A DNA stretch of 64,000 nt from Methylococcales bacterium (GCA_028713055.1 JAQTOX010000001.1:3988-67987); one strand, 5' to 3'. Positions 33,162 through 57,406 are shown, counted from the stretch's first letter. Translations and numbers: made by a program. Notes: a model not told the origin generated them from the sequence alone.

Positions 33162-34376
33162 TTACTGAACACGTTCGTCAATCACCAACTTCACCACACC
33201 ATTATCTACCGACGTTGAAACCTGTTTTTTACCAATCGGTTCACCGGATTGCGCGATGGCATTGCCAGTATGACTAATTCTTGCGCTGATTTGGACACTC
33301 GCTACCGACGAAATTGTCATATTTGGCATCATCGCCATACTGTCATCAAGCGTTACGTCTAATGGCAAATCTTTCACCTGTTTTTTCACGACGGCTAACG
33401 GCATTTTTCCACCTTGCGCCGGTTGTGCATAAATGAAAACAAAATCTTCTGGATTTGTGGCTGCTTTGAATTTTTCGTCTAACGAAATCGCTAAATGAAT
33501 ACTTTTGTTCGTTATCGAGGCTTTCTTTTCTGCCACAGGTACTGGTTGTCCCAAGGCTTCACGCGCTTGATCAATTAGTTTTTGAACTTCCAAATAATCG
33601 GCATCCTCGGGTTTGTAATGCGTTTGCAATTTTTGCCAAAGCCCAATCGCCTCATTGAATTTTCCATCTTCTGCATTTGCCAATCCGTACAACCACAACG
33701 CCATATCGTTATTTGCATCGAGTTCCAAAGCTTCTGCTACCAGTTCAGTCGGTTCACCGAGTAATGTGCCACCTTTTTCCATTGCAATCACGTCCGCCAA
33801 TTGCAATAAAACTTCAGGTTGCTCTCCTGTTAAAGCGCGAGCTTTTCGCAAGGCTTCGACCGCTTCGGGATAACGTTTTAACACTTTGTACGAACGCGCC
33901 AACATAATCCAGCCTTCTGAATCGTTTGGATTTTGTGCCATTTTTTGCGCGAGTTTTTCAACCATACCGTTAATATCGGCAGCCGTTTTTGTCGGCATTT
34001 CACCTTTAATTGCAACATCGTCAAATGCCCGAAAATCACCTTTTACACTATAAATTGCCAATGCCAACAACGGTACAAAAACACCCAATGGAATCGCAAT
34101 CCAACGTCCACTTGATGAAGTGGAACTGGTGGGAATATAACGTAAATCGTGATGCAAATTTAACATCAACTCATTTTTTAATGGTTCATATTGTGCAACT
34201 GTAATCACGCCATTTTCTAAATCCGTTTCAAGCGATTGCAGTTTTTGTTGCGCGAGCCGGATGTTTATTTCTGAATCGTCACTCGACACAATTTTGGGTT
34301 TTAACCACAACGGAATCAGCAAAAAACATAACGCAATCGCAATAAATAACGCGACAAAAATACCAAATTGAATCAT
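33162..34376 (-). CDS. ccmI: Cytochrome c maturation protein CcmI/CycH (TPR protein)
   Basis: N-terminal TM helix, a second TM helix, TPR repeats, and a typical C-terminal domain (VFIYAQPAQGGKMPLAVVKK...). Its ATGA overlaps ccmH. Confidence 0.85.
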   Translation of the reverse strand: MIQFGIFVALFIAIALCFLLIPLWLKPKIVSSDDSEINIRLAQQKLQSLETDLENGVITVAQYEPLKNELMLNLHHDLRYIPTSSTSSSGRWIAIPLGVFVPLLALAIYSVKGDFRAFDDVAIKGEMPTKTAADINGMVEKLAQKMAQNPNDSEGWIMLARSYKVLKRYPEAVEALRKARALTGEQPEVLLQLADVIAMEKGGTLLGEPTELVAEALELDANNDMALWLYGLANAEDGKFNEAIGLWQKLQTHYKPEDADYLEVQKLIDQAREALGQPVPVAEKKASITNKSIHLAISLDEKFKAATNPEDFVFIYAQPAQGGKMPLAVVKKQVKDLPLDVTLDDSMAMMPNMTISSVASVQISARISHTGNAIAQSGEPIGKKQVSTSVDNGVVKLVIDERVQ

Positions 34377-34831
34377 TTTGAATCACTCGTGGTGTGTAAA
34401 AGTTCAGCAATACGAGCGCGTTCGCTCGCGGATAATTGTTCATCAACATTTGTTTTTCGGCGTTTTAATAATGACCAGAAACCTAAACCACCGAGCAACA
34501 AAGTCAAAACTGGTGCAAGCCATAAAATCAAAGTCCGCGCATTAAACGGTGGGCGATACAACACAAAATCACCGTAACGTTCAGTCATGTAATCAATAAT
34601 TTGCGAATTACTTTCGCCACGATTCAGCATTTCGTAAACTTTTCGTCGTAAATCTTGCGCCAGTTCGGCGTGCGAGTCGGCGATGTTTTGATTTTGACAA
34701 ACTAAGCAGCGCAATTCCTCGGTCAAGGTTTGATAACGCAATTCAAGTTCAGACGTAGTGAATTGATAAACTTCAATTTCAGCGTGAACGCTTTGGCTTA
34801 GAAGAAGTAAGCACAATACTAATTTTTTCAT
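34373..34831 (-). CDS. ccmH: Cytochrome c maturation protein CcmH/CycL
   Basis: Signal peptide, the LRCLVCQNQNIADS (LRCxxC) motif, and a C-terminal TM helix. Confidence 0.9.
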   Translation of the reverse strand: MKKLVLCLLLLSQSVHAEIEVYQFTTSELELRYQTLTEELRCLVCQNQNIADSHAELAQDLRRKVYEMLNRGESNSQIIDYMTERYGDFVLYRPPFNARTLILWLAPVLTLLLGGLGFWSLLKRRKTNVDEQLSASERARIAELLHTTSDSK

Positions 34832-36508: not shown

Positions 36509-37030
36509 TTAATTAAAATTTTGCTGCATTTTTTGCCACACATTCGGTGTTAATGCGCCTATATATCTAGCACGAATGATACCGTTTCCATCTACCAGAT
36601 ACGTTTGTGGCAAACTTTGAATATCTAACGGCATTGCGCTTGCCATTGCACCATCAAACATAATTGCGTCAAACGGATTCCCTTGTTGTTTTAAATAGGT
36701 TTTGGCATTTTCTAAATCGTCTTGATAATCCACGCCATAAATTGTCACGCCTTCTTCTGAAAGTTGTTTTAACAATTCATGTTCCGCCCGACACGCCGCA
36801 CACCATGAAGCCCAAACATTTATCAACGCAGGCTTTTTAAAATCCGTGCTATTCAAAATGATGTCGGTGTTTTCTAGTGAAGGTAAATTCACCACAGGAA
36901 TTTTTTTACCGATTAAACGCGACGGACTTTTATTCGGGTCATACGTCAAACCGTAACCGTACATCACACCTAAAAGTGAAATTAAGATAATCGGCAACGC
37001 CAACAACAAACGCGGCTCAGGCTTTGTCAC
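36509..37030 (-). CDS. ccmG: Thiol:disulfide oxidoreductase CcmG/DsbE
   Basis: N-terminal TM anchor, the NVWASWCAACRAEH thioredoxin motif, and the LPQTYLVDGNGIIRARYIG motif. Its ATGA overlaps the upstream cytochrome gene. Confidence 0.9.
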   Translation of the reverse strand: MTKPEPRLLLALPIILISLLGVMYGYGLTYDPNKSPSRLIGKKIPVVNLPSLENTDIILNSTDFKKPALINVWASWCAACRAEHELLKQLSEEGVTIYGVDYQDDLENAKTYLKQQGNPFDAIMFDGAMASAMPLDIQSLPQTYLVDGNGIIRARYIGALTPNVWQKMQQNFN

Positions 37031-39939
37031 TGTAAATAATCCACAACTTGACGTACTTTTTCTTTATCGTGAAAGTATTTAAATTTTGGCAACGCATTCA
37101 TACCGTGACAATCGATGCAAAATGTCCCTTTCACGCCTTCAGTTCGTAAAAAACTATTGAGTGGCGAACCTTCCACATTCTCAATTTGCCCAAGTGACAA
37201 AATCGATTTTGGTTTTGATTGCAGCGCGTTTTGACGAATTTTCGCGCTCCAAAAATGTGGCTCGTGGCAGGTTTTACAAGCGATTTGTCCGAAATCGTCG
37301 ATTTTTTCTTTGGCATTTAACAGCGGCATAACTTTTTTATCTGACCGTAAAACCATGTCTTTGTGTGGATGATTAAAAAATCTCACAATTTTCTTTTCTG
37401 CAATGCCATTTTTTTGATGGCAGTTAATGCAAAGTTTATCTTCACGCAATTCGCTATGTTGCAATTCTCGGTCAGCAAAATCTTCTACAACCGATTTCAC
37501 CGAAAATAAATGCGGTGGATTTTTATCGCCTTTGTGCAAACTGTGACACGTGCCACAAACGCCACTTTGCGAAGGTTTTTCGTTAAATTGATTTGGTTTA
37601 TTTTTCGCCGTAATTCGCAAATCGTGGTCACTTCCAACTATCGCTTGTTTGCCTTGATGGCAATGTGAACAGAGTTCGCCATTTTGATTATTTTCAACTA
37701 ATGCGGGTGTATCGGTTTTGCCTTCATGCACCGAGTGACACGTTAAGCAACCAATTTCGCGCGTTTTTTTACCAGCGACAATTTCAACGTCATCGTCCAT
37801 TTTTACATTCACAGGATGGACGCCTTTTTGATCTGCATCGTCTTTGTCTTTTGCATGTTGACGTTGATGGCACGTTTTACAAAGTGATTCCGCGTCTTTA
37901 ATCCCTTTGTCGAGCAATGCCGTTTCTGGATTGCCCGAATGAACATTGTGGCAACTTTGACAGGTGACAAATTTCACTTCTTTGTCGTTTTTTTTCATGG
38001 GTTCATCAGGTTTTACGTTTGTTGGATGAATACCTTTGTGACGGGCATCGTCTTTATTTTTCGAGGCTTGTTTATCGTGGCAGGTTTCACAAAGCGCATC
38101 AGAAGTCAGATATTTTTTCTCAAGCAACGCTGAACCAAGTTTGCCATCATGAACAACGTGACAGGTTTGACAACTGACAAACTCAACAGTTTTGCCATCT
38201 TTTTGCATTGGTTTCTGATGTTTTTTTGGATCGGGTTTGATATTGACCGGATGTACGCCTTTTTTATGTGCGTCTTTTTCATTTTCGGAACTCTGCCGTT
38301 CGTGACATTCCAAACATAACGATGCTTTTTCATTTTCCAAAACAGTCAACGCGCCATTATCAAAACCGCCGTGAATTTGGTGACACGTTTGGCAAAGCAT
38401 TTCGTTTTGATTTCCTAAAACACCGCCATTTTTTAGTAACGAATCAGGTAACCCGTGTTGTTGTAATTTTGCCTCTGTTGCAAAACCAAGCGCGTTTTTT
38501 TCCGGCGGCAAGGCTAATTTAATGGCTAACGGATGATTCACACCGCGATTTTTGGCTTCTTTTTCACGGGTATTTTTACCTTTAGATTCATGACATTTTT
38601 CGCACAAATCGCCGTTTTTATTTGGCACACGCAGCCACGCATTGCCATGTTCTTTGTAAAGCGTTTCGTTCTCCAACATTTCACCCCCCTTTGAAAGGGG
38701 GGCTAGGGGGGATTTAGTGTGTGGCGTGTGGCAACTCGCACAATTCAAGTTGTTATGTTCGCCGTGAGGAAAATCCTTTGGTAATTTATCGGTGCGTTTT
38801 TCAACGAAACGTTCTTTTTTTAATTTTTCATCGTCATAAATTGTTGAATGTTGCGCTTTTGTGCCGATTCGCAAACGTGAATCCACAATTGCGCCGTTAT
38901 GACAGCTATAACACATCAAAAATGAACCATCAGGCAAAACGCCATTTTTGTCGGGTTGCGCCGTTTCTTTAACCCACGATAAATGACACGCTAAACAATT
39001 TTTTTGGGAAAGCTCAATTGAAACAGAATTATTTTTAGCAAGTTGTGAAAATTGTGGATTGATTGAAAATTCGACAATTTGATTGCCTAACGTTTCAGCA
39101 AGAAAAAGTTTATTGTCGCGCCATGCCAAGGAAGTCGGTGATTGTAAAACCATTGTTTTGCCGTTGTTATCAGTTAATTCTCCCAATGCTTCGCCATTTT
39201 TGAAGACTTTAATCGTTCCAAAATAACTGTCACTCACAAACAGCAAATCATTTTTTAGGTCGATTGCAATGCCATTTGGACGAAATAACGCCGTTTTGTT
39301 TGTACCGAATTTGCCAATCGTCGAAAAGAATCGCCCGTTTTTATCAAACTGTTGAATGCGTGAATTCATAATATCGACAACATAAAGATAACCGTCGCGG
39401 TCAAACGCCATTTGATACGGATATTGAAATTCATCCTCCATTTCGCCACGTTTTCCAAAGCACGGTAATGCTGAGTTTTTAACTAAATCAAAACGACAAA
39501 TTCTATGATTGGCGCGATCTGACCAATAAATTACATCTTCATAAACTGCAATCGCGACAGGTTCGGGCAAATTTTTGCTTTCTGCTGTTTGCGAAACATC
39601 GATTTTTTTGGTGAGTTTGCCCAAATTATCAACGCTCGTTAGTTCACGTTTTAACGGATTTGCGAGCCACCACCCATTTTTATAAGCAAAAACACTTAAT
39701 GCCGCGCCGTGGTTATCAATCAGATTTGCCGATTCACCAAGATGCAAACCCGAATTATCCAAAAACACCATTTTTTCTGCTGAAACCGCAACACCAACTG
39801 GTTTTTGCAAATTCGCCTCTAAAACACGTTGTGCTGTAATTTCTACCGCCCACGCATTCAAGGCGATAAAAAATAAATAGAACGCTAAAAATAGGCGATG
39901 GTTAACGTAACATTTCACGAATAGTAATCCGTTGGTCAT
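37027..39939 (-). CDS. NHL-repeat beta-propeller fused to a 16-haem c-type cytochrome (970 aa; an alternative GTG start at 39918 gives MKCYVNHRLFL...)
   Basis: N-terminal ~300 aa carry NHL repeats (YVVDIMNSRIQQFDKNGRF, LFVSDSYFGTIKVF). There are 16 CxxCH motifs counted by eye, and repeated CxxCH...KD(D)A..KGVHP.N(V/I)K units. Confidence 0.9.
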   Translation of the reverse strand: MTNGLLFVKCYVNHRLFLAFYLFFIALNAWAVEITAQRVLEANLQKPVGVAVSAEKMVFLDNSGLHLGESANLIDNHGAALSVFAYKNGWWLANPLKRELTSVDNLGKLTKKIDVSQTAESKNLPEPVAIAVYEDVIYWSDRANHRICRFDLVKNSALPCFGKRGEMEDEFQYPYQMAFDRDGYLYVVDIMNSRIQQFDKNGRFFSTIGKFGTNKTALFRPNGIAIDLKNDLLFVSDSYFGTIKVFKNGEALGELTDNNGKTMVLQSPTSLAWRDNKLFLAETLGNQIVEFSINPQFSQLAKNNSVSIELSQKNCLACHLSWVKETAQPDKNGVLPDGSFLMCYSCHNGAIVDSRLRIGTKAQHSTIYDDEKLKKERFVEKRTDKLPKDFPHGEHNNLNCASCHTPHTKSPLAPLSKGGEMLENETLYKEHGNAWLRVPNKNGDLCEKCHESKGKNTREKEAKNRGVNHPLAIKLALPPEKNALGFATEAKLQQHGLPDSLLKNGGVLGNQNEMLCQTCHQIHGGFDNGALTVLENEKASLCLECHERQSSENEKDAHKKGVHPVNIKPDPKKHQKPMQKDGKTVEFVSCQTCHVVHDGKLGSALLEKKYLTSDALCETCHDKQASKNKDDARHKGIHPTNVKPDEPMKKNDKEVKFVTCQSCHNVHSGNPETALLDKGIKDAESLCKTCHQRQHAKDKDDADQKGVHPVNVKMDDDVEIVAGKKTREIGCLTCHSVHEGKTDTPALVENNQNGELCSHCHQGKQAIVGSDHDLRITAKNKPNQFNEKPSQSGVCGTCHSLHKGDKNPPHLFSVKSVVEDFADRELQHSELREDKLCINCHQKNGIAEKKIVRFFNHPHKDMVLRSDKKVMPLLNAKEKIDDFGQIACKTCHEPHFWSAKIRQNALQSKPKSILSLGQIENVEGSPLNSFLRTEGVKGTFCIDCHGMNALPKFKYFHDKEKVRQVVDYLQ
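38679..38718. repeat. Half-copy (single arm) of the 80-nt palindromic element, in-frame inside the NHL cytochrome gene
   Basis: tcacccccctttgaaaggggggctaggggggattt matches the right arm of the copies at 43918-43997 and 47091-47170. It is translated as KSPLAPLSKGGE. Confidence 0.7.
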
Positions 39940-40687
39940 CGTTTTTATAATGTTCTAAAAAGCGTGGAATGATGTGCGTGGTAATCGCTTGAACTTGTTC
40001 TGAAGTTGCACCCAATTTGGACAAATCGAGTTTCGATTTTTTATCATTGTGGCATTCTTGGCAAGGCGTTCCTTGATGTATTTGATCGGTTTTTTGCCAA
40101 TTCATCGGCGCGTGAATTTTTGCGTGCAACGTCACCTTTTCTGAATCATTCGCGTGTTTCCATTGTTCTTCGATTTGATTTGAAAACTCATCACTTTTCA
40201 ACAAGAAAATCCGTACATTATTTAAAAATGGCCCGATTTTAGGATTTGTCAAACGTTGATTTTCGTTATCGATATTTTTGACAATTCGCAATAAATTCTG
40301 TCCTAAAACGGGCTGCTGTTTTTCCATATCAAACCACTGATAAGTAAATTTTTTATTTTCATAATGACACGTTTCACACGCAATAAATCGAACGTGCATA
40401 TTATTAAACGTGCGTGTTCTCAATGCCTTTTGATGTGGTAACGGAGAATGGCATGTTTGGCAAAAACTTTGTGGCGCGGTTTCGAGTTCACCCGTTTGTT
40501 TATGAAACGGTGGAATTACGAATTTTTCTTTAATCTCAATGTCTTTGTGTTCACGCACAGATTTTGCTGATAACTCAACCGCTTTTTGAGTAACTGACGC
40601 ATTTTCGATTTGTTGTTGGTGCAACGGAACATCTGCGGCAAAAGCCGATTTAACGATGAATAAAAATAATAAAAAATAAATTTTCAT
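39902..40687 (-). CDS. Trihaem c-type cytochrome (261 aa), secreted
   Basis: Signal peptide MKIYFLLFLFIVKSAFA and the motifs CQTCH, CETCH and CQECH. Confidence 0.85.
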   Translation of the reverse strand: MKIYFLLFLFIVKSAFAADVPLHQQQIENASVTQKAVELSAKSVREHKDIEIKEKFVIPPFHKQTGELETAPQSFCQTCHSPLPHQKALRTRTFNNMHVRFIACETCHYENKKFTYQWFDMEKQQPVLGQNLLRIVKNIDNENQRLTNPKIGPFLNNVRIFLLKSDEFSNQIEEQWKHANDSEKVTLHAKIHAPMNWQKTDQIHQGTPCQECHNDKKSKLDLSKLGATSEQVQAITTHIIPRFLEHYKNDDQRITIREMLR

Positions 40688-41970
40688 GATTTATCCTCAT
40701 CGTTTTTGGCTTTGGCGAATCGCTTTTTAATTTTCACCCACAAGCCTTCTTTCTTTTTAGGTTTTGAACCGATGATGATGCGTTGAAATTTCTCCGCGCC
40801 CAAAATTGAATTATTGTTGTTTTTGTTCAATTTGCTAGCATCACCAAAAATGCTCCAGGCGATATTTCCAAGCAAAAACACAATGGCAAATGAACCTAAA
40901 ATTGCTGCCAGTTTGTACCAAATCGATAATGTTTTAAACGTTGCAAAGTCGGGTTTTAAAACTTCATTTACTTTTGTTTCGACACCTAACCCAAGTGTTT
41001 GCACACCGTGCATTTCTGAATTTAAAAAGCCTTTGTTAGCCACGCTTTTTGAATAATCTTTATGGCAGTTCGATTGTCCACAAGTTTGCGCTAAATGTGC
41101 GGGATTTACCGACGAATCTACGTTTTCATCTCGTTTAATGCCATGATGTAAACCAGTTGGCGCGTGACATTCAACGCATGAGGCACCTACTAAATTTTCA
41201 TCAGCTAATAATCGTCCGTGTAAGGTTTTGTTATAACTTTCAGTCGAATGAATAAACGCCAAACTCACGGCTTTTTTTTCTTTTGTTTGGGAATCGTCTT
41301 GTTCAATTTTTGCCATTTTTTCAATATTGCCATGACAATCGATACACAATTTATTTGAAACATTTTTGTTCAAATGATTGCCAATATAACGGCGCAAAAT
41401 GTGACCGCTAAATTGATTTCGCCACACATCACCCTCGTGACAAGTGCCGCATTCTGCATCATTGTGAGAAAACTCTTTTTTGAATGCGTCCATTTGCGAT
41501 GCGGCAATGTACGGCGCGTTATCGTGACAACGCCGACACGAAGGCAAGGCAGAATCGGTGTCTTCTTTGATTCGATTTCCCGCCGCAAAATCTTTGCTTA
41601 AACCTTTTCCGTGTGCGGAACTTTCAAATTCTTTGGCAATATCTTTGTGTGTGAATGCCTTGCCATTGGAAGGTTCTTTGACATGACAGGTTTCGCCACA
41701 ATCGACCAAACCATCTTTTTCTTCGTGCGGATAATCAGTGATTTTTCGATGACAATCTTTGCACGGAACAGAACCATGCAACGAACCGTAATAATCGGAT
41801 TTCAAAATCGAAGCCGAACGAATTTGCCCTTGCTTATCGACATATTTCAAATCAGGCAAACCGTGACACGAAAAACAACCATCTGGATCAGGTTGGCGTT
41901 TATCGGCAAAAGTTAGATTGCAAAAAATCAGCAGCAACGCAAAGAAAAAGAATTTAAAACACTTCATCAA
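40684..41970 (-). CDS. Multihaem c-type cytochrome (6 CxxCH + CX3CH + CX4CH) with a C-terminal transmembrane anchor
   Basis: Signal peptide. Motifs CFSCH, CKDCH, CRRCH, CGTCH, CIDCH and CVECH, plus CGETCH (41683-41700) and CGQSNCH (41062-41082). TM helix LSIWYKLAAILGSFAIVFLLGNIAWSIF, then a Lys-rich tail. Confidence 0.85.
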   Translation of the reverse strand: MMKCFKFFFFALLLIFCNLTFADKRQPDPDGCFSCHGLPDLKYVDKQGQIRSASILKSDYYGSLHGSVPCKDCHRKITDYPHEEKDGLVDCGETCHVKEPSNGKAFTHKDIAKEFESSAHGKGLSKDFAAGNRIKEDTDSALPSCRRCHDNAPYIAASQMDAFKKEFSHNDAECGTCHEGDVWRNQFSGHILRRYIGNHLNKNVSNKLCIDCHGNIEKMAKIEQDDSQTKEKKAVSLAFIHSTESYNKTLHGRLLADENLVGASCVECHAPTGLHHGIKRDENVDSSVNPAHLAQTCGQSNCHKDYSKSVANKGFLNSEMHGVQTLGLGVETKVNEVLKPDFATFKTLSIWYKLAAILGSFAIVFLLGNIAWSIFGDASKLNKNNNNSILGAEKFQRIIIGSKPKKKEGLWVKIKKRFAKAKNDEDKS

Positions 41971-43019
41971 TGCACAGCCGTCGCAATTGTTATCATTGTT
42001 AAAAACCCCAACAGCAACGTCGCGTTAATGACTCTTGTCCATGAAATAGTTTGAACAGGCGTTACTTTTGGTTCAAAACGTGGTTTAAAGGTAATCACTT
42101 GCCAATCGGGATCGGGGAAAATTTCTGTACCTTTTTTAACACGCTTCGGTTCTTTGTGACGCGAAGCTGTGGTCCATTCGATTGCGTTCCAATCACACAC
42201 GTCAACACATTCGTGACAATCCATGCACGATGATTGTTCGACAGTGGCGACTTTATCAATCATTTTGATCGCGCCACACATACAATTTCGCGCACAAACA
42301 TTGCAACCTGTACAACGTTCTTTGGCAACGCGAATGCGGTGTGTGCTGCGAAAACGTGAGCCAAAACTGTTCACAACACCGTCGATTGCGCCAATCGGAC
42401 ACATAAATTGGCAATAAGCACGACCTTTGCTTGAGAAAAATCCAAGCAATAAAAGCAACGATAAATTCACTAAACCTACCGCTGAAAAAATAAACGCTAA
42501 ACCACCCGCGCCGCCTGACATCGCTTCGACTAAACGCGGTACAGTCACAAAATTACATAATGTACACGCACTCACACCAATGGCAGGTAAAACAATTAAA
42601 TATGTTCCCAAATAGCTGTAGCGAATTTGAAATTGCGGCAACCAACGGTATTCGATTTTCCATCGGTCATTTAATAAACGGCTGACCAACTCGCTAAATC
42701 CACCGACAGGACATAAAAAACTACACCAAATCCGTCCAAAAAATAATGTCGTTAGCAAAATCAATCCAAACGCAATCACGCCAATCATTGCCGCTGAAAC
42801 GTGCGTAGCAAAATCATCGAGCGACATATTTGGAAAATATAAATAAAACCGTCGCATACACAAACGCCCACATAAATCGCTATTGCCTGCGAGTTTAGGC
42901 AATATCGCCAACGGCGTTAAAAATACAATGCAAGAAACAAAAATCGTCGTGTAACGAAAACGTTGAACTTTTGGGACTTCGCGCCAACGTTGTAAAGTTG
43001 TTTTAAATGGATTCTTCAT
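41967..43019 (-). CDS. NapH/MauN/NosR-type membrane polyferredoxin (4Fe-4S binding integral membrane protein)
   Basis: Two CX3CP motifs (WCSFLCPVGG, YCQFMCPIGA) in TM-flanking loops. Two ferredoxin clusters, CTGCNVCARNC and CMDCHECVDVC. Several TM helices, including an extra C-terminal one. Confidence 0.8.
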   Translation of the reverse strand: MKNPFKTTLQRWREVPKVQRFRYTTIFVSCIVFLTPLAILPKLAGNSDLCGRLCMRRFYLYFPNMSLDDFATHVSAAMIGVIAFGLILLTTLFFGRIWCSFLCPVGGFSELVSRLLNDRWKIEYRWLPQFQIRYSYLGTYLIVLPAIGVSACTLCNFVTVPRLVEAMSGGAGGLAFIFSAVGLVNLSLLLLLGFFSSKGRAYCQFMCPIGAIDGVVNSFGSRFRSTHRIRVAKERCTGCNVCARNCMCGAIKMIDKVATVEQSSCMDCHECVDVCDWNAIEWTTASRHKEPKRVKKGTEIFPDPDWQVITFKPRFEPKVTPVQTISWTRVINATLLLGFLTMITIATAVH

Positions 43020-43022
43020 CGT

Positions 43023-44009
43023 TTAATTCTCAAACTCATGACAACTCAAACATAACGTGCCGTCTTTTGCTGGCAAGCGTAATAAAACTTCATTTTTCAG
43101 GCGTTGATATGGCGGCAAAGTAGTCGCTAATTTTTCTAAACGGTCGAGCTTATCCGCGTCAATAACTTCGCTCCAACTGTGTTTTTCATATTCCACGCCT
43201 TTTTTAATATCGCCATCGATTTGTTTGCTAGCAGGATTTTTTTCACCTAAAACACCTTTTGCGTGTGGCGAATGGCACGTTAAACAAAGCACTTCATCAT
43301 TTTCCGAAAGCGGCAAATGAACACCTTGCTCGGTTTCTATTTTTTGCAAACGCGCTTTCATATTTCGTGCTGAACTTTTCGATTGTTCTAACGTTTTAAG
43401 GTTCGCATCGGTATGTTCAACCGCGTTGAAATGCGGCGTTTTTAAATGGCAACCCAAACACACTTTTTCAACAGGTAAACGCAATCTGGCTTCAACTAAC
43501 GGACGCAATTTGTCGCGCTGTTCGTTGATTTCACTGTGACAAAATAAACAGTTTTCTTTTTTAATCGTACTGTCATCATTCAGCATCAAATGAATGTTTG
43601 GGCGTTCATGGGCTTTTTCATCGTGACAGTTCGCACAAAATGTTTCTAATTTTTTATAACCGTTTTTGCGTAAAAAATCAGGTGCATTCTTATCAATTTT
43701 GTCGTAAGGCGTTTCAGCGATTTTTTCTAAACCGTGGCACGTCTTACAACCGATTTTTCGCCCTTCTTTTAAAACAAATTCAGCAGGTGGGTGCATTTCG
43801 TCTAACAATTTAATATCTACCGCGTGATGCAAATCGGGCAAATGTTTCGATTGTTTATACGATTGCGTTTGCCAATCGGTCGATTCGGCGGCAAAAGGCG
43901 TTGTGCAAATTAACCATAAAACAAATCCTCCAACCCCCTTCAAAAAGGAGGCTTTTTCTTTTTCCCCTTGAAAAGGGGGGCAGGGGGGATTTGCTTTAAA
44001 AACTCTCAT
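43023..44009 (-). CDS. Hexahaem c-type cytochrome (328 aa); the N-terminus is encoded by the palindromic element
   Basis: CKTCH, CANCH, CLFCH, CLGCH, CLTCH and CLSCH. Signal-like GVGGFVLWLICTTPFAAES. A possible internal TTG start gives MKGVGGF... Confidence 0.85.
   Translation of the reverse strand: MRVFKANPPCPPFQGEKEKASFLKGVGGFVLWLICTTPFAAESTDWQTQSYKQSKHLPDLHHAVDIKLLDEMHPPAEFVLKEGRKIGCKTCHGLEKIAETPYDKIDKNAPDFLRKNGYKKLETFCANCHDEKAHERPNIHLMLNDDSTIKKENCLFCHSEINEQRDKLRPLVEARLRLPVEKVCLGCHLKTPHFNAVEHTDANLKTLEQSKSSARNMKARLQKIETEQGVHLPLSENDEVLCLTCHSPHAKGVLGEKNPASKQIDGDIKKGVEYEKHSWSEVIDADKLDRLEKLATTLPPYQRLKNEVLLRLPAKDGTLCLSCHEFEN
43918..43997. repeat. 80-nt palindromic (MITE/RPE-like) element, full copy
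   Basis: aaaacaaatcctccaacccccttcaaaaaggagg...ccccttgaaaaggggggcaggggggatttgcttt. The arms are inverted repeats of each other, and each arm contains its own C5/G5 mini-hairpin. Confidence 0.8.
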
Positions 44010-44995
44010 AATCCTTTCTGCACGCGCTCGCCGTGATTATGACAAGTCACGCAATCCGAACCATTGTTAAAATGCACGCCGCTTAAACCGTTGCCCGTGT
44101 CGATTTCACCACCATCAGAAACCGTTTTCATGTTGTGGCACAACGCACAAAATTGGCTGTAATTCGTGTTGTTTTCGAGTAATTTCACGCTATACGGTTT
44201 GTTACGCATTTTAGAATCAAGAAAAATCGCGCCATTGCGTGAATCATCAATAAGTAAATTCGCATCTGTTGTACCGTGCATGGTGTGACAATCGACACAA
44301 TTAACAATCGTTTTGTACGCATAACCATCGCGCAGACCACTATATAAACCATTGCCCGTGCCTTCTGAAACGCCGTGTTTATCAATTTTCCAATAATCAT
44401 CTTCGGCGGCAATCGATTGATTTCTTCTGCCTGCATGAATAATTGGATAGTTCGTTTGCTGATGATTTCGATTGTGGCAACGCAAACAGAATTCGTTTTG
44501 GTCTTGGTAAGGCAACGGAGTTTCCGTTGGTTTATTAGGTTTGTCGCTAAACATCGTCAAATCAATATCTAACTCAAATTTACCATTCATATTCGAGGCA
44601 TCATGACAAACAACGCATTGCCGACTGGTCGTTGGCAAATCTTTCGACGCATCAAAATCATGCCGATGCTTGCCTGTTCGCATTGGATTCAAAGGCATAT
44701 CTTGCGGATTATGACAAATCAAACATTGCGGCTCGGTTTTTTTCGCACCGTTATCACCGTGACAAGCTGTGCAAGTAGCGAATTTCTTTTTATCTACAAT
44801 TGTTTTTATTTTCGGTACGGTTTCATGCAAACGTTGTAGCGCGTGACAACTTTGGCAATTTGCTTTGCCCCACGCGCTACCCATTCCATGCGACGGTGTT
44901 AAAAGCAAACTACCATTTTGCGAAATCGTTTTGGCGTGAATCGGCATCACGAAAAACAAGAAAATTAAAAAGGGCAGATGTTTAACGTGTCGCAT
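44006..44995 (-). CDS. Octahaem c-type cytochrome (start taken at Met 44995; the track ORF extends to 45049)
   Basis: Eight CxxCH motifs (CQSCH, CTACH, CLICH, CVVCH, CLRCH, CVDCH, CALCH, CVTCH). Signal peptide MRHVKHLPFLIFLFFVMPIHA. Confidence 0.85.
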   Translation of the reverse strand: MRHVKHLPFLIFLFFVMPIHAKTISQNGSLLLTPSHGMGSAWGKANCQSCHALQRLHETVPKIKTIVDKKKFATCTACHGDNGAKKTEPQCLICHNPQDMPLNPMRTGKHRHDFDASKDLPTTSRQCVVCHDASNMNGKFELDIDLTMFSDKPNKPTETPLPYQDQNEFCLRCHNRNHQQTNYPIIHAGRRNQSIAAEDDYWKIDKHGVSEGTGNGLYSGLRDGYAYKTIVNCVDCHTMHGTTDANLLIDDSRNGAIFLDSKMRNKPYSVKLLENNTNYSQFCALCHNMKTVSDGGEIDTGNGLSGVHFNNGSDCVTCHNHGERVQKGL

Positions 44996-45575
44996 GACAG
45001 TCACTGCAATAATTTTCATTGTGGCAACGTCCGCAACGTGCCGAATCAAAACGTGCTTCTAAACCGTGCAACGTGCGATAACCTAACGGATGATAACCCG
45101 CGCCCGACGTGTCACGGCGCAAATGGCAATCGGTACAAAAGTTCACATCTAAATGACACGTTTGGCAGTATTTTTCATTGCCTCGCGCGGCTTCGTTGTG
45201 ATGGTTTTTGTAATCAAATTTATGGTCAGGCGGTTGAATGCGCTCTTTATCGGTGTGACAAACGTCGCAACGCCACGGCGCACGTTGTTCATCCACATGG
45301 CAATTATGGCAAACCGCTTTGAGTGATTCGTTAGCAATGACGGTTAAATTTTTGAGTTTTTTAATATCAACGACATCGGTTTTTGCGTAAGTATGACAAA
45401 GCAAACAACTATCACCTTCTTCTTTCATCACGTCTAAATGTGCGTTGTGCGGATAATAAACGTCGGATTTTTGATTTCGTTTTTCCCACCACGAATTGTC
45501 AGTTTTGGCATCAATCGCAAACACTGAACTCGTCAAAACGAACAATAAACACATTGTGATAATTCGGTAACTCAT
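44982..45575 (-). CDS. Heptahaem c-type cytochrome, very haem-dense (197 aa), periplasmic
   Basis: Signal peptide MSYRIITMCLLFVLTSSVFA. Motifs CLLCH, CHNCH, CDVCH, CQTCH, CTDCH, CGRCH and CSDCH. Encoded directly downstream of the beta-barrel gene. Confidence 0.9.
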   Translation of the reverse strand: MSYRIITMCLLFVLTSSVFAIDAKTDNSWWEKRNQKSDVYYPHNAHLDVMKEEGDSCLLCHTYAKTDVVDIKKLKNLTVIANESLKAVCHNCHVDEQRAPWRCDVCHTDKERIQPPDHKFDYKNHHNEAARGNEKYCQTCHLDVNFCTDCHLRRDTSGAGYHPLGYRTLHGLEARFDSARCGRCHNENYCSDCHATR

Positions 45576-47176
45576 GGTTTTTTCGCCTGAAAATAATCGA
45601 AATAATAAGTGAGTTGCATCGAGCCTAGATATTCATTGGTGAGTTGTGAATTGTTGATATAACTGGCTTTCAACGCCACAACCCAATTGTTTTTAATCAT
45701 CGTTTGCCATTCTGTTTCAACGCCTGTGGCAAAATTTTCGGGATACAAATTTTTCTTTTCATCGCGAAACGCTAGATTCACGCTGTAACGATTTTTACTA
45801 TCGAGTGCGTGGGTATGCGAAACATAAAAACTCGTCGCGTATTCGCCACTGTTCAATTCCAAATAATCGACTGTACCTTGCCAAGTGACATTCGGTTTAA
45901 ATTGGTAACTCACGCTGGCATTCGCGCCATAACCGTTATAACCCGTTTTGCGATCGGCAACTTGAACGCCTGCCGAATAACGCAAATCACTGGAAAAACG
46001 ATGCTCCACCGAACCGCGCCAAATTTGTTGTTCACCCAGCGCGTAAGCCGAATAAAAACGATCTCGAAAGGTGACATAAGGTTGAACAGGTCGATAGGCT
46101 TCGTAATAATTTCGCAACCGCACATTTTTAAAAACATCCCACCATGAATCGACAAACACATTTTCAAGGCGATTTTTTTCACTGGCGTAAGAACCTTTAA
46201 CGTAAATTTCAAACGGCTTTTTTTCACCGAGTAAATTACCCGTTAAATGCGTTGCGGCGTTATAGCGATATGTCGTCAACGTGCGTTTTCTAAGTGTTTG
46301 CGTTGGCATACCTAATACGTCGAAATTCGCATTTGTGGCAGGTTGATTTTCAACAGTTGTCGCTTCAATCGGTTGCGGCGTTTCAATCGCGTCGAAATTG
46401 TTATTGACCAAACTTTCATTAAATGTTGGCGAAAGTAACGTGTCTTCTGGATTGCTTGTGGTTTTTGGTGCTTCAACAACCGCGTTAGTATCAACATCTT
46501 TCACTTCTGTTTTAGGCGAAATTGGTTGAATTACATTTTGTAAAAATGTTTCGTTACGTTGAACCACTTGCATGCCAAAACGGAAATCAGTTTTTTCTAA
46601 TTTAAACCATGAGGTTGAAAAATTTGGAGAAAGATTTAACGCGCTTTCAATGCCTCCAACCAAATTACCGCGTAACGATTGAACGTGATCAACTTGCAAC
46701 GGTCGACCGCCATAAATCTCAAAACTCAACGGCGTTGAAACTTGATATTGTGCTGTTGCGCCATCAACTAAATACAAGCCTAAATTGTCGCTTTTTTCAA
46801 ACCGTCCACCGCGTAATGTCACGGGTAAAAAGTCAAAACTCTTTTCGGCATACGCCTGATAAAGCCGTTGTTTGTCGCGGTAAATATCGGTACTTAAACG
46901 ACTTACTGCGCTAATTTGTGCATTCAACTTTTGATTCGGATTGTTATAAACGAGTTGCCCCCAAACTTCACCCGTGTAATCACCATTTTGCATATCGTAG
47001 CGATTGTCGGTCTGCATTTTTGTACGTATTGAACCCCGCCAACTGTCGTTTTGGTCGGCGGCGAAAGTGTTTGTTGCCAATGCCGACAGCAAAGCAAATC
47101 CCCCAACCCCCTTCAAAAAGGGGGCTTTCTTATCTCTCCCCTTTGAAGGGGGGCGAGGGGGATGTGCTTTAATCAT
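45572..47176 (-). CDS. Outer-membrane beta-barrel protein (porin component; start taken at Met 47176, track ORF to 47224, possible TTG start inside the element)
   Basis: No Cys. Alternating hydrophobic/aromatic beta-strand pattern throughout (for example RYSAGVQVADRK, ANASVSYQF, WQGTVDYLEL, YATSFYVSHTHAL, RYSVNLAFRD, WVVALKASYIN, GSMQLTYYF). Signal-like GVGGFALLSALATNTFA-ADQ. One long P/T/N/E-rich loop. Confidence 0.75.
   Translation of the reverse strand: MIKAHPPRPPSKGRDKKAPFLKGVGGFALLSALATNTFAADQNDSWRGSIRTKMQTDNRYDMQNGDYTGEVWGQLVYNNPNQKLNAQISAVSRLSTDIYRDKQRLYQAYAEKSFDFLPVTLRGGRFEKSDNLGLYLVDGATAQYQVSTPLSFEIYGGRPLQVDHVQSLRGNLVGGIESALNLSPNFSTSWFKLEKTDFRFGMQVVQRNETFLQNVIQPISPKTEVKDVDTNAVVEAPKTTSNPEDTLLSPTFNESLVNNNFDAIETPQPIEATTVENQPATNANFDVLGMPTQTLRKRTLTTYRYNAATHLTGNLLGEKKPFEIYVKGSYASEKNRLENVFVDSWWDVFKNVRLRNYYEAYRPVQPYVTFRDRFYSAYALGEQQIWRGSVEHRFSSDLRYSAGVQVADRKTGYNGYGANASVSYQFKPNVTWQGTVDYLELNSGEYATSFYVSHTHALDSKNRYSVNLAFRDEKKNLYPENFATGVETEWQTMIKNNWVVALKASYINNSQLTNEYLGSMQLTYYFDYFQAKKP
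47091..47170. repeat. 80-nt palindromic (MITE/RPE-like) element, full copy
   Basis: aaagcaaatcccccaacccccttcaaaaaggggg...cccctttgaaggggggcgagggggatgtgcttt. It has the same length and architecture as the copy at 43918-43997. Confidence 0.8.
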
Positions 47177-47402
47177 CTTTAGTGCGGATTTCAAACGGTT
47201 CAAGCCCTTGCTTGCGTTGTTCACGGCGTTTTTTTAATGCCAAACCCGTGAACGTCGCCACTGCAATAATGCAACTTCCGCAACCTGCACACGTTCCAAT
47301 TTTCGGCACAGTGCAAGCCGTCGCTAATAATCCCTGACTCAATGCAACGCCCGAACCTGTGAGCCACGGCAATGATTGGGCGACTAAATCGGATGTTTTC
47401 AT
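47169..47402 (-). CDS. Small Cys-rich membrane protein (77 aa), unknown function
   Basis: Two hydrophobic segments flank CTVPKIGTCAGCGSC (CX8CX2CX2C), with a basic C-terminal tail. Its ATGA overlaps the upstream gene, and its stop lies in the palindromic element. Confidence 0.55.
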   Translation of the reverse strand: MKTSDLVAQSLPWLTGSGVALSQGLLATACTVPKIGTCAGCGSCIIAVATFTGLALKKRREQRKQGLEPFEIRTKDD

Positions 47403-50050
47403 TTTTTCAAATCCACTAAAACCGCACGTTCTGGCAATTGCGTCAGCGATAAAATAACGTAATTCGATTTAACAGCGATAATTTCAGCGGGAATGCGGGT
47501 TTTAGGTGGGTCAATAATGTTGCCGCTAACTAAATTTACCGCGAATAATCCCACTTCATTTGGCGCAGTCGCATAACCGTCGTAAGGTAATTTAACAAAC
47601 AACTTTTCTTTGCCAAGCGAGCAAATTAGCGCATCGTTTAAACAACGTGATTGAAAATAAAATACGGAACTTGAAACTTCACCTTGCGATAATGTGCTAA
47701 CTTTTTTATTTCCAACGAACGCAAAATCCATCCAATCTGAAGCGATAATTTCAAAACGATAATTCGGTAAAATAGCTTTATTTGCATTGGTGTAGTTTGC
47801 AGCCAGCCAGATATTTTTGACGTTGTCGCCTGTTAAATTATTCTTAAAAACAAAGGCTTTTCGAGTAAGTTGCGCGGCAAGTGTTGTTTTTACATCGGTA
47901 TCCAAATCCTTCAAAATATCATCTCGTGCCATGACTTGAAATTCGCCCGAAACGGCATTTATTTTGTTGCTTTGCAATTGTGAGGTAAATGGATTTAGTT
48001 TTGTTTCATACAAAACATCATCGATATTTTCGACAATTTTGCCGTCATCTGAGAGTTTGAAATATGGCATTGCTAATTTCACAACGCCTTCTTTAATCAG
48101 TTTTGGATACGCTGTTTTATCGTTTAATTCTGCGACCACACGAACATTGTTTTTGCCAAAAATTCCCGAGTCAGAAAGTGCCGAATTGATTGAACCGTTA
48201 CGTTTGCGTTCATGACAATCGGTGCAAGGCATCGTATCCGCGATAGGGCGCGTGTTGTGACTGATTAAATACTCATTCGTTTCAGTCCAAATCATTTGTG
48301 CATTGGGCTTTTGAAAACCTTTTGCTTTGAGCAAATCATCAAAACGTTTTTTCAGCTCTTTCACGTCTTGATAACTTTTTGGTTCGCTATCCACTCCGTT
48401 TGTAACTTCTAAACGTTCGGCTTGCGTTAAAACACGCTGATTTGTACTGTCTACCCAATAATAACGGCTCGCAGGATTGTACGGCATAATGCGCGACTTT
48501 CCATCTTCAGAGGGTCGATAACGAAAACGTGGTTTGAGTGGTTTATCTTGATATGCCAATTTATATGCCAATTTTGTGATATGGCACGTTTGACAGGCAA
48601 CGGAATTGAAATGCACTTGCACCGTTCTATCCAGTGTTCGTTCGGCATAACCCACCATATCGCCTCTATTCCGCCACAATTCACGATGGGCATCTAAAAT
48701 TGTCGCCAAACCCGAATGCGGCCATGCTGGTTTTTCAGGACTTCCGTAAGTTTGAACCCCGTGGCAATGCTCACATGACAATGGTTTAGGCTGATTATTC
48801 AAATCGCGACGCACATCTTCATCGGAAAATCCCGTTAAAAACTGATGATCCGCACTTAAATCCAGAGCTTTTTTGTAATAATTTTTTGCGTGACAGGCTT
48901 CGCAATTTTCAATCGAACGAACGGTGCCTTTTTCTGTCCACGATTTGCCTTTGTGAACATCGTCGCGCGTATCTACAACATTTGCGTCTACTTTTGCCGC
49001 GTCGCCAAAACCGTAAAAACCGCGTCGTTGTTCGCTAGTTGAATGACATAACATACAATTTTCGCTGGCTGGAAAACGCAACATAGGAATTTGTGCATCG
49101 CCGTTTGCGTCAAAAGCGGCTTCATCCCATTTCAAAACCGGTTCAGCATGTTCAGGTGTTTCAAGTGTGGCTAACGTTTGACCGTCTACGCTATCAGGCA
49201 ATAAATCTAAAAACGCAAAAATTGCCGAATTCGCATAACGAAACCAGCCGTTTTTGATAATTTGCACGTTGCGTTGTGTTTTCCATTCAGAAACGGGACG
49301 TTTGAACTTAGAAATATCCGCGTGGCAAGCCATACAGTCGGGTTCAATTACCCCGCTTTTTTGCCAATCCCATTGTTCAATTTTTTTGCCATTCCACTCG
49401 AAATAATCGCCGTCTAAAAAAGAAACTGCATTTTCAGGTTGTGAGTCGTAACGTTTTCCAACACGGTCTTTTTCAGCAAACCCCCCGCCAGTGTGACATT
49501 CTTCACAATTTTTAATCAAACCGACTGCGCCGTAGTCTAAAAAATCGGCTTCTTTCGTCGTCATTTTTTTACTTAACCACGAAGGATTATTGCCGTTTTG
49601 GCAACTGTAACCACCGAAATAAGCAGGTGAAGTCAGTGCTGCTAAACCACGACGAAGTCCAAATTTATCATCACTTTCATCGCGTCCCATTTCAAAGTGA
49701 TAAGCGTGACTAATTTTATCAATATCATGACAACCCGCTCCGCCACCACAACTGGTACGAGTGCTATAAGGTTTTTGGGAATCCAAAACGTGTTGCCCAG
49801 TTTCATCTAACAACGGAATTGCGGGATGGATTGTGGGGAAGTCGACGGTATTTCCAATTGCTGAATTTGTTGTGGCAACGACTGGCGGCATCATTGTCAC
49901 AGGCATCGTTATCGATGGTGTTGATATTGGCGCGATTTCATAGGTGGGCGTATATCCAGACAAATCTTCGCCATCGTCAGCCCACACATTTGAAAATGGA
50001 AATGCGAACAATAAAATTGCGAAAAAAAGTTGCTGAATGACGAAGTGCAT
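47399..50050 (-). CDS. Large multihaem c-type cytochrome (883 aa, 7 CxxCH + one CX5CH) with a non-haem C-terminal domain; first gene of the operon
   Basis: Signal peptide MHFVIQQLFFAILLFAFPFSNVWA and a Pro/Thr-rich linker. Motifs CEECH, CMACH, CMLCH, CEACH, CEHCH, CQTCH and CTDCH, plus CGGGAGCH at 49727-49750. The last ~270 aa lack haem motifs. Confidence 0.85.
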   Translation of the reverse strand: MHFVIQQLFFAILLFAFPFSNVWADDGEDLSGYTPTYEIAPISTPSITMPVTMMPPVVATTNSAIGNTVDFPTIHPAIPLLDETGQHVLDSQKPYSTRTSCGGGAGCHDIDKISHAYHFEMGRDESDDKFGLRRGLAALTSPAYFGGYSCQNGNNPSWLSKKMTTKEADFLDYGAVGLIKNCEECHTGGGFAEKDRVGKRYDSQPENAVSFLDGDYFEWNGKKIEQWDWQKSGVIEPDCMACHADISKFKRPVSEWKTQRNVQIIKNGWFRYANSAIFAFLDLLPDSVDGQTLATLETPEHAEPVLKWDEAAFDANGDAQIPMLRFPASENCMLCHSTSEQRRGFYGFGDAAKVDANVVDTRDDVHKGKSWTEKGTVRSIENCEACHAKNYYKKALDLSADHQFLTGFSDEDVRRDLNNQPKPLSCEHCHGVQTYGSPEKPAWPHSGLATILDAHRELWRNRGDMVGYAERTLDRTVQVHFNSVACQTCHITKLAYKLAYQDKPLKPRFRYRPSEDGKSRIMPYNPASRYYWVDSTNQRVLTQAERLEVTNGVDSEPKSYQDVKELKKRFDDLLKAKGFQKPNAQMIWTETNEYLISHNTRPIADTMPCTDCHERKRNGSINSALSDSGIFGKNNVRVVAELNDKTAYPKLIKEGVVKLAMPYFKLSDDGKIVENIDDVLYETKLNPFTSQLQSNKINAVSGEFQVMARDDILKDLDTDVKTTLAAQLTRKAFVFKNNLTGDNVKNIWLAANYTNANKAILPNYRFEIIASDWMDFAFVGNKKVSTLSQGEVSSSVFYFQSRCLNDALICSLGKEKLFVKLPYDGYATAPNEVGLFAVNLVSGNIIDPPKTRIPAEIIAVKSNYVILSLTQLPERAVLVDLKK

Positions 50051-50194
50051 TAAACCTGTTTGTCCAAAAATAAAAGTAAAAGTGAATTTGAACAGTAAGA
50101 GCAGGATTTAATCCAATAACAAAAAAAACCAACTAAATAAATATGTTATTACTAATTTTAAATTTTAAAAAGGCGACGGTGGTGGTCGAATTGC

Positions 50195-50235
50195 GGCATA
50201 TCGCTTACTTGAAAAATAAAACTAGGCGATATACC
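50195..50235. promoter_or_regulatory. Imperfect inverted repeat (ggcatatcgc N20 ggcgatatacc) in the divergent intergenic region
   Basis: Paralogous to the perfect 12-bp inverted repeat at 53441-53483. It lies about 145 nt from the minus-operon start and about 160 nt from the 50395 start. Confidence 0.5.
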
Positions 50236-50394
50236 AGAATAACAAATTGTAAAGAGCAAAAAATACCAAAAATGCGACGTAATAAATTGAATTTAAAAGG
50301 CTATTTTCAAGGGCATAGTTATTGTTAGAAACCTAAATGTTACTAATTTTTAGTAGCGTTTTTACACAAAACTAATTTTAAAAAAGGAGGGTTT

Positions 50395-53355: not shown

Positions 53356-53394
53356 CACGAATACCATCGTCAAATTGGTGATTTAAAAAGAGGT

Positions 53395-53421
53395 GAGTCT
53401 ATTTTTAGACTCCCTTTTTTT
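53395..53421 (+). terminator. Rho-independent terminator
   Basis: gagtcta (53395-53401) pairs with tagactc (53406-53412), then a T7 run at 53415-53421. Confidence 0.7.
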
Positions 53422-53440
53422 ATGACCCTATTTTTTAATA

Positions 53441-53483
53441 TGGCATATCGCCTATTCTTCAAAGATAAGTGGGCGATATGCCA
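53441..53483. promoter_or_regulatory. Perfect 12-bp inverted repeat (tggcatatcgcc N19 ggcgatatgcca) in the leader of the second giant cytochrome gene
   Basis: The arms at 53441-53452 and 53472-53483 are exact reverse complements. It is conserved with 50195-50235. Confidence 0.6.
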
Positions 53484-57387: not shown

Positions 57388-57406
57388 CGTTCAAACGTTA
57401 AGGGAA

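Follow-up and report, generated by a model that had tools for sequence, protein, structure and literature searches.

The closest described relative of the locus examined here is the MCA0424-MCA0434 operon of Methylococcus capsulatus Bath, in which eleven genes encode eight cytochromes with 58 CxxCH motifs, and one member, MCA0427, is a beta-barrel (Larsen & Karlsen 2016, PMC4831470). Without copper, transcripts of these genes rise 2.3- to 8.6-fold; mass spectrometry placed MCA0424 and MCA0426 in the cell-surface fraction, and electron export was considered plausible by those authors, who had no biochemical evidence for it (PMC4831470). M. capsulatus can reduce both ferrihydrite and anodes; copper starvation strengthens these activities, and deletion of MCA0421, a neighbour of the operon, lowers them (Tanaka 2018, PMC6281684). 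We report that an operon on the minus strand (37027-50050) of a 64,000-nucleotide (nt) stretch of DNA from a Methylococcales bacterium (GCA_028713055.1, JAQTOX010000001.1:3988-67987; hereafter, the window) is, judged from its gene content and order, the Methylobacter-lineage orthologue of MCA0424-MCA0434, a type of operon that has been described but not mechanistically dissected. With a probability that we put at about 0.6, its products form a haem wire spanning the entire envelope, along which respiratory electrons leave the cell.

How gammaproteobacterial methanotrophs sustain their activity in anoxic lake waters and sediments has yet to be explained, and extracellular electron transfer (EET) is one candidate answer. 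The only envelope conduit proposed so far for Methylobacter is a different, four-gene MtrAB-type cluster, presented in a 2026 paper on Methylobacter electrogenesis that states that such systems are unreported for aerobic methanotrophs and leaves the present operon unmentioned (PMC13322032). The operon described here is much larger and unrelated to that cluster, is conserved in many lake Methylobacter-lineage genomes, and was first noticed in M. capsulatus in 2016. For a Methylobacter metagenome-assembled genome (MAG) from Lake Mendota, a run of genes encoding in turn proteins with 6, 6, 8, and 7 haems, a porin, and an 8-haem protein has been typed as ‘ombB-omaB-omcB’ (He 2019 Table S2, PMC6344600); the numbering gaps in that list fall at the positions of the NapH-like and small-protein genes considered below. 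What we add is the link between lake Methylobacter and M. capsulatus, a small barrel family unrelated to MtrB, a wider distribution, and an inner-membrane module defined by gene fusions, which supply a concrete and falsifiable wiring diagram. The operon is present in genetically tractable isolates (Methylococcus and Methylomonas) and so is directly testable.

More distant systems share parts of the design. MtrCAB and MtoAB/PioAB follow the same logic of a barrel, an adjacent haem-dense periplasmic cytochrome, and a large extracellular cytochrome. The Geobacter OmbB-OmaB-OmcB and Ext conduits have 18-21-strand barrels, periplasmic multihaem partners, and modular, variable extracellular parts (PMC6148476). 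PCC3/PCC4 of Fe(II) oxidisers and the Uet system of Tenderiales are likewise large porin-multihaem clusters with an inner-membrane component of their own, and Uet also joins a barrel to small haem-dense cytochromes, to NHL propellers, and to a long extracellular cytochrome.

Gene content and layout of the operon

All ten co-directional open reading frames (ORFs) that a sequence-only reading of the window had described are present, chained on the minus strand at 37027-50050, and its general interpretation as a porin-plus-multihaem-cytochrome operon is well supported. In transcription order the products have 883, 77, 550/534, 197, 347/337, 328, 350, 428, 261, and 970 amino acids (aa), and they comprise eight multihaem cytochromes, a Cys-free barrel, a 77-aa four-Cys membrane protein (B77), and a NapH-type polyferredoxin (G); the cytochromes are named below by a letter and their length. 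Fewer ATGA overlaps join the genes than the six initially counted. Four are genuine (47399/47402, 45572/45575, 44006/44009, and 40684/40687), whereas the junction at 41967/41970 is TTGA, where use of an ATG one codon further on would give a 1-nt TGATG overlap, and that at 37027/37030 is GTGA and opens into an eleventh gene, encoding a DsbE-like redoxin. Longer overlaps occur between the B77 and barrel genes (8 nt), D197 and E337 (38 nt), and I261 and J970 (38 nt), and a 3-nt gap separates F328 from the NapH-like gene. A scan of the operon revealed no internal promoter or terminator signals above chance.

The number of canonical CxxCH motifs, given earlier as 53, is correct for the eight cytochromes; a 54th lies inside the second ferredoxin motif of the iron-sulfur protein G. 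Residue shuffles of the same ten proteins yielded a mean of 0.26 and a maximum of 3 such motifs. H428 adds one CX3CH and one CX4CH motif, both kept in its orthologues, so that together with its six CxxCH motifs it qualifies as an octahaem protein, and it possesses a C-terminal transmembrane (TM) helix, in agreement with its description as a C-terminally anchored octahaem. The operon thus has about 55 haem sites. The signal peptides of the cytochromes are all Sec-type with AxA cleavage sites, and the signal-peptide check detected no lipobox in any cytochrome of the operon.

Correspondence with the M. capsulatus operon and distribution

A Methylococcus locus (L022) matches the window operon one-to-one and in the same order over all eleven genes. 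Its products are, in sequence, a 917-aa 7-haem protein (counterpart of A883), a 101-aa protein with the four-Cys motif (B77), a 916-aa 7-haem protein (a second copy of A883), a 494-aa barrel, a 203-aa 7-haem protein (D197), a 332-aa 8-haem protein (E337), a 293-aa 6-haem protein (F328), a 349-aa NapH-like protein (G), a 972-aa 8-haem protein (H428), a 268-aa 3-haem protein (I261), a 930-aa NHL protein with 14 haems (J970), and a 181-aa redoxin (K). Sequence identities are 35% for the barrel, 64% for D197, 68% for the NapH-like protein, and 49% for H428. The CxxCH motifs of this locus sum to 58 in eight cytochromes (7+7+7+8+6+6+3+14), and because both the content and this number equal the published description, we equate L022 with the MCA0424-MCA0434 operon. 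The window has 53 motifs rather than 58 because it holds a single surface cytochrome where M. capsulatus has a duplicated one (MCA0424 and MCA0426), and because its NHL protein carries 16 haems instead of 14. The two operons also differ in that the M. capsulatus octahaem protein is fused to a flavodoxin/FAD/NAD reductase of ~560 aa that is absent from H428, that a TonB/ExbBD system follows the M. capsulatus operon whereas ccmHI follows that of the window, and that two divergent PKD-type cytochromes lie upstream of the window operon, unlike that of M. capsulatus. The operon had been put forward as a candidate new conduit. That claim has to be withdrawn, as the gene set matches one described in 2016 as a probable electron-export system; the synteny with a known cluster is essentially complete, although the Bath operon has been described rather than functionally characterised.

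The cluster is conserved as a unit in at least 19 Methylococcales species genomes, and a search with the NapH-like protein also reached Methylococcus and the Methylomonas isolates CP043929 and CP160405. The same ten-gene order was found in Candidatus Thiodiazotropha and on one unassigned metagenome contig. A deltaproteobacterial locus (L029) holds the whole cluster, including the small four-Cys protein, with a barrel that is a remote family member (about 24-34% identity over aligned parts). A tblastn comparison of the fetched loci recovered the same genes in unchanged order as far as each contig extends, with identities as low as about 50%, accompanied by the redoxin gene and usually by a divergent PKD-cytochrome. 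In searches with single proteins, homologues of the barrel came only from Methylococcales/Methylobacter MAGs from stratified lakes, a protein identical to D197 is encoded on a contig of MAG GCA_028719025.1 that also encodes a protein labelled Methylococcales, and G has a close relative in a Sedimenticola MAG.

Predicted outer-membrane module

The longest form of the barrel ORF begins with GTG at 47224, and the public record calls ATG at 47176; the latter start is most likely, placing the gene at 45572..47176 and giving a protein of 534 aa with no Cys. An AlphaFold2 model made from a 26-sequence alignment (mean predicted local distance difference test score of 73.9) has 22 beta-strands, arranged as nine strands, a disordered and length-variable loop at residues 212-294, and 13 further strands. 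The protein had been described as a Cys-free barrel of 550 aa; its lack of Cys is confirmed and the model predicts the barrel fold, while its length is more likely 534 aa. An exhaustive profile search of 1.84 billion representative sequences defined the family as 89 clusters at 50% identity.

We detected no relationship of this family to known conduit barrels. The barrel and 58 relatives matched no Pfam or NCBIfam model, those for MtrB/PioB included. When two barrel profiles (A1 and A2) were searched at E≤10 against solved chains, which presumably include MtrB, A1 gave no match and A2 only one chance match (E 1.4). Foldseek returned generic barrels only (ushers, AlgE, and porins, with TM-scores of 0.2-0.4), and MtrB was absent from its top 50. 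With 59 members free of any family match and no related PDB chain, membership of the MtrB/PioB family is ruled out, and the view that the parts list is unlike that of MtrCAB or PioAB/MtoAB is upheld. The Methylococcus barrel has been called ‘homologous to mtrB’ (Tanaka 2018, PMC6281684), a homology that our sequence comparisons do not bear out. Beyond the lack of a detectable sequence relationship to the Mtr/Mto/Pio barrels, the window protein has about 22 predicted strands compared to 26 in MtrB (cited in the Tenderiales preprint) and 28 in the Uet barrel.

The gene that follows, D197 (44982..45575), encodes a 7-haem cytochrome that packs its seven motifs and eight extra His into 177 mature residues, or one haem per 25 residues. 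All seven motifs are invariant across 11 orthologues. The D197 start and the barrel stop share 4 nt, an overlap that recurs in most related loci, and wherever a locus includes the two genes, D197 comes directly after the barrel. These features make D197 a candidate for a haem wire inside the barrel. Mtr-type inserts have 10 haems compared to 7 in D197. At the haem spacing of MtrA, a seven-haem chain would measure ~6 nm, probably long enough to span a 22-strand barrel. D197 did not match the MtrA/DmsE model TIGR03508, and E337, F328, and J970 scored 42.8, 24.6, and 71.1 bits against its cut-off of 192; indeed, the window cytochromes stay below the cut-offs of the MtrA/DmsE, OmcA/MtrC, NrfB, NapC, and Geobacter-specific models.

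Proposed inner-membrane module

G (41967..43019) is the most conserved gene of the cluster, with 81-96% identity across Methylococcales. Its product has five predicted TM helices, the last of which follows the ferredoxin domain in the structure model, two CX3CP motifs (CSFLCP at 99 and CQFMCP at 203), two CxxCxxCxxxC ferredoxin motifs (236 and 265), two Fer4_5 stretches (E 3e-22), and two further nearly invariant Cys pairs (C50/C54 and C152/C155). According to the positive-inside rule, the N-terminus, both CX3CP motifs, and the ferredoxin domain are predicted to face the cytoplasm, and the C-terminus and the two additional Cys pairs would face the periplasm. The hallmarks of the NapH/MauN family (TM helices, two CX3CP, two CxxCxxCxxxC) are thus all present, yet G scores below the NapH cut-offs (78.9 versus 213 bits for TIGR02163 and 75.2 versus 234 bits for the NapH equivalog), and no nap genes occur in the window. 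G shares with NapH the TM helices, the two CX3CP motifs, and the two C-terminal [4Fe-4S] motifs, but it has an extra C-terminal TM helix and the two extra conserved Cys pairs, its partner is the haem protein H428 instead of the iron-sulfur protein NapG, and NapA and NapB are lacking. The inner-membrane protein of PCC3/PCC4 is of a 5-TM, dihaem-b type with two WX3HX13H motifs (He 2017). Membership of that group is ruled out since G is an iron-sulfur protein with five His in total and no HX13H, and the operon encodes no second polytopic membrane protein. No solved structural homologue was identified for the membrane domain of G, its PDB matches being limited to ferredoxin domains.

The two genes after G encode H428 (40684..41970), the octahaem protein with a signal peptide and a C-terminal TM helix, beyond which a conserved tail (..FQRIIIG..) extends into the cytoplasm, and I261 (39902..40687), a periplasmic trihaem cytochrome. 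Natural fusions join these components. G and H are fused in P0110 and P0129, and in the deltaproteobacterial MAG contig Ga0224514_10000005 (L029, 13102-16008) a single 968-aa polypeptide combines G, H, and I, with the I261 counterpart forming its C-terminal part. The seven hydrophobic segments of that fusion are placed exactly at the sites of the terminal helices and signal peptides of the separate proteins. In Methylococcus (L022/L023, 11103-14021), a 972-981-aa protein links the octahaem to a cytoplasmic, CysJ-like diflavin reductase with flavodoxin, FAD, and NAD(P) domains; MCA0431 was annotated merely as a ‘multiheme c-type cytochrome’ (PMC4831470). The fusions indicate that G, H, and I act as one unit with redox parts on both faces of the membrane, and the Methylococcus fusion places the H tail in the cytoplasm and ties it to NAD(P)H. 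Such a link to cytoplasmic NAD(P)H, present in one lineage or more, favours outward electron flow.

The operon had been noted to lack a CymA/NapC or NrfD-type protein, and we concur, as no NapC/NirT-family protein reached threshold. The apparent lack of a quinol dehydrogenase is better read as the presence of a different inner-membrane module, composed of G, the anchored octahaem, and the trihaem. NapGH modules are quinol dehydrogenases in nitrate reductase systems, and by this analogy the unfused G/H/I module probably draws on quinol. This fusion-defined inner-membrane module was previously undescribed.

Probable surface cytochromes, presumed relays, and small proteins

A883 (47399..50050) has seven CxxCH motifs at residues 182-609, followed by a haem-free C-terminal domain of ~270 aa, and its haem density is low (123 residues per haem). 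Its identity to the two Methylococcus paralogues is 41% and 39% over about 860 aa, and because these orthologues, MCA0424 and MCA0426, were found in the surface fraction, we assign A883 to the cell surface as a probable surface cytochrome. It scores 28.6 bits against the OmcA/MtrC cut-off of 209.3, and it is neither a lipoprotein nor an MtrC/OmcA decahaem. Instead of a lipobox it has a signal-peptidase-I site (VWA|DD). The same holds for two secreted cytochromes encoded divergently on the plus strand, the 9-haem U986 (50395..53355) and the 8-haem, PKD-domain V1251 (53632..57387): each of the three proteins carries an AxA site for signal peptidase I and lacks a Cys at position +1, whereas the outer-surface cytochrome of Geobacter is a lipoprotein (PMC6148476). 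U986 and V1251 are paralogues that share 35% identity in the C-terminal half, and most related genomes have the V1251 orthologue upstream of the operon in divergent orientation. The divergent plus-strand segment (50395-58808) also encodes a 450-aa PKD/Lcl_C protein, and Methylococcales have a large family of PKD-cytochromes, of which single genomes carry several copies. Kinship of U986 and V1251 with the M. capsulatus c553O proteins MCA0421 and MCA0423 is unsupported, as the homologue search matched Methylococcales PKD-cytochromes only and none from Methylococcus; one distant match that we inspected was an isolated gene.

E337 and F328 (43023..44009, 6 haems) are presumed to be periplasmic relays; the most likely start of the 8-haem E337 is the ATG at 45019, which yields a protein of 337 aa (44006..45019). 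J970 (37027..39939) joins an N-terminal NHL beta-propeller, at about residues 40-300, to a 16-haem domain; its orthologues in Methylococcus, Methylomonas, and L029 have 14 haems. In Uet, the NHL proteins are separate from the cytochromes.

B77 (47169..47402) contains an invariant PW(L)xGxG...C-x8-C-x2-C-x2-C motif, after which come a TM helix and then a basic tail. Its gene lies between those for the large cytochrome and the barrel, with the four Cys kept, in every locus that covers the position, including those of Methylococcus, Thiodiazotropha, and the deltaproteobacterial MAG, and the protein has no Pfam or NCBIfam match. A lipoprotein assignment for B77 was considered and ruled out, as the orthologues carry N or Q at position -1. 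The conserved eleventh gene, K (36509..37030, minus strand), encodes a DsbE/CcmG-like membrane-anchored thioredoxin and has a GTG start that overlaps the J970 stop.

A G/C-hairpin repeat of ~70 nt with the core CCCCCTTCAAAAAGGGGG occurs within the operon at 47100-47170 and 43925-43990, with a half copy at 38684-38702; the core has five matches where none is expected by chance. Each full copy is read in frame within a signal-peptide n-region, giving MIKAHPPRPPSKGRDKKAPFLKGVGGF in the barrel and MRVFKANPPCPPFQGEKEKASFLKGVGGF in the 6-haem F328, and the insert is missing from the same genes in several related genomes.

Proposed electron path and alternatives

Synteny and gene content, together with the fusions, the motifs, the predicted barrel, and the orthology, are what the analysis establishes; on that basis the complex would be organised as follows. 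Electrons would enter through G, with its iron-sulfur clusters on the cytoplasmic side and its C-terminus in the periplasm, together with the anchored periplasmic octahaem H428 and the trihaem I261, which by analogy with NapGH would take them from quinol; in Methylococcus, the octahaem protein with its fused cytoplasmic diflavin reductase would draw them from NAD(P)H. The 8-haem E337 and 6-haem F328 would relay them across the periplasm, perhaps with the NHL-16-haem J970 as a long bridge, and the 22-strand barrel with the 7-haem D197 threaded through it would conduct them across the outer membrane. At the surface, A883, U986, and V1251 would be the last carriers, with Fe(III)/Mn(IV) minerals, humic substances, and partner cells as candidate recipients. 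The four-Cys protein B77 and the DsbE-like redoxin may help in assembly or maturation. We infer the direction of flow and the physiological acceptor, and we favour an outward, reductive role on three grounds: the fusion to an NAD(P)H reductase, the fact that M. capsulatus performs EET in the reductive direction, and the hypoxic or anoxic lake-water ecology of the hosts.

Several points weigh against this proposal. The sole mutant, dMCA0421, affects a neighbouring gene and not the operon itself (PMC6281684), and our homologue search found no relation of MCA0421 to U986 or V1251. Induction in M. capsulatus follows copper starvation and not oxygen limitation (PMC4831470), and the TonB neighbourhood there fits metal acquisition as well as respiration. 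The presence of the cluster in the sulfur-oxidising Ca. Thiodiazotropha is a setting where inward flow would make sense. Co-transcription of the ten genes is deduced from their overlaps and conserved synteny, and the residence of D197 in the barrel lumen is putative. Electron crossing of the inner membrane by a NapH-type protein would be without a structural template, given that no solved structure of a NapH-type membrane domain was found and only the ferredoxin domains match.

The evidence bears differently on the other explanations. Geobacter conduits consist of three to five genes, with the inner-membrane cytochromes ImcH and CbcL encoded elsewhere, compared to ten genes with a dedicated Fe-S/haem inner-membrane module in the window. 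The operon may still be a divergent member of the Geobacter OmbB-OmaB-OmcB (Pcc) group instead of a separate lineage. This is a doubtful but serious alternative, since the same gene order and haem counts (6, 6, 8, 7, porin, 8) were given the label ‘ombB-omaB-omcB’ in Lake Mendota (He 2019 Table S2, PMC6344600), and a barrel of 400-530 aa with about 22 strands next to a small haem-dense cytochrome resembles Omb/Oma and Ext. What argues for separateness is that the surface cytochromes lack a lipobox, whereas Geobacter conduits use lipoprotein cytochromes (PMC6148476), that the barrel has 89 relatives only, of which the L029 member, the one remote relative whose genomic context was read, sits in the present ten-gene cluster and not in a three-gene Pcc, that none of the 20 relatives whose names were checked came from a named Geobacter, and that no Geobacter-specific NCBIfam model reached threshold. 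The unlikely case of an outward but assimilatory pathway, which would reduce extracellular Cu(II) or Fe(III) and so mobilise scarce metals for the particulate methane monooxygenase and haem synthesis, draws on the regulation in M. capsulatus, where the operon belongs to the copper-responsive cluster CRC1 along with TonB-family genes, rises 2-9-fold without copper, and has a predicted Fur box upstream (PMC4831470). ExbB/ExbD genes follow the Methylococcus locus, and the Fer4_5/NapH superfamily that includes G also contains CcoG, a reported cupric reductase, with G a weak match to ccoG_rdxA_fixG (E 8.9e-7). The window offers little of this context: no TonB/ExbBD or metal-uptake genes adjoin the operon, no Fur box (and no sigma-54 site) was matched above chance upstream of A883, and about 55 haems in ten proteins would be a heavy cost for trace metals.

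Reversed flow, in which Fe(II), reduced minerals, solids derived from sulfide, or a cathodic partner would feed the quinone pool along the lines proposed for MtoAB/PioAB and Uet, appears distinctly improbable. Haem wires are intrinsically bidirectional, and both Ca. Thiodiazotropha, which has the cluster, and Sedimenticola, which has a relative of G, are lithotrophic sulfur oxidisers; however, the diflavin reductase fused to the Methylococcus octahaem is NAD(P)H-dependent and of an electron-donating enzyme class, the EET of M. capsulatus is reductive (PMC6281684), and methanotrophs in hypoxic water are electron-rich and acceptor-limited. We assign very little weight to a scheme in which the large cytochromes are enzymes acting on soluble tetrathionate, nitrite, hydroxylamine, or peroxide and the barrel is a plain solute porin. 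Residues 331-496 of A883 do match part of the octahaem tetrathionate reductase family (E 3.3e-11), and its low haem density, at 123 residues per haem, would suit an enzyme, but the match reaches 42.9 bits where the cut-off is 375 and is confined to haem-motif regions, the A883 orthologues are on the cell surface (PMC4831470), and a solute porin would leave unexplained both the translational coupling of the barrel and 7-haem genes and the strict co-inheritance of ten genes across classes.

The haem wire carrying respiratory electrons outward remains the reading that we prefer. A more specific extension of it is tentative: the operon may represent a distinct, unnamed class of conduit with Fe-S/haem entry at the inner membrane in place of a NapC/CymA or NrfD-type quinol dehydrogenase, through which nominally aerobic Methylobacter-type methanotrophs dump methane-derived electrons on iron minerals or humic substances in anoxic lake water. 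If true, this would supply a missing mechanism for methane oxidation by gammaproteobacterial methanotrophs below the oxycline, and symbionts that oxidise sulfur, as well as uncultured Deltaproteobacteria, would have the same module.

Flanking regions

The AT-rich intergenic region between the operon and U986 (50051..50394) presumably holds the divergent promoters. It contains one sigma-70-like match on the minus strand (50189-50162), although no sigma-70 signal rises above chance. The sequence AAAATTAGTAA occurs twice in the AT-rich divergent region (50150-50360), one copy lying within the near-palindrome GCTACTAAAAATTAGTAAC, and these elements may be a regulator site.

Downstream of the operon, on the same strand, are the cytochrome c maturation genes ccmH and ccmI (33162..34831). 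Between ccmH and the DsbE-like gene, the minus strand at 34988-36493 encodes a protein of 501 aa that contains no Cys, bears FlgE_D2-like and RTX calcium-binding repeats, and has no counterpart in the related loci that were compared. The window contains no Rfam RNA family. A Lambda-like prophage or phage region extends over 1500-31000 and encodes the terminase gpA (4583-6406, minus strand), a portal protein, an S49 protease, the head-decoration protein D, the major capsid protein E, and a 3113-aa SLT-domain tape-measure protein (15524-24865).

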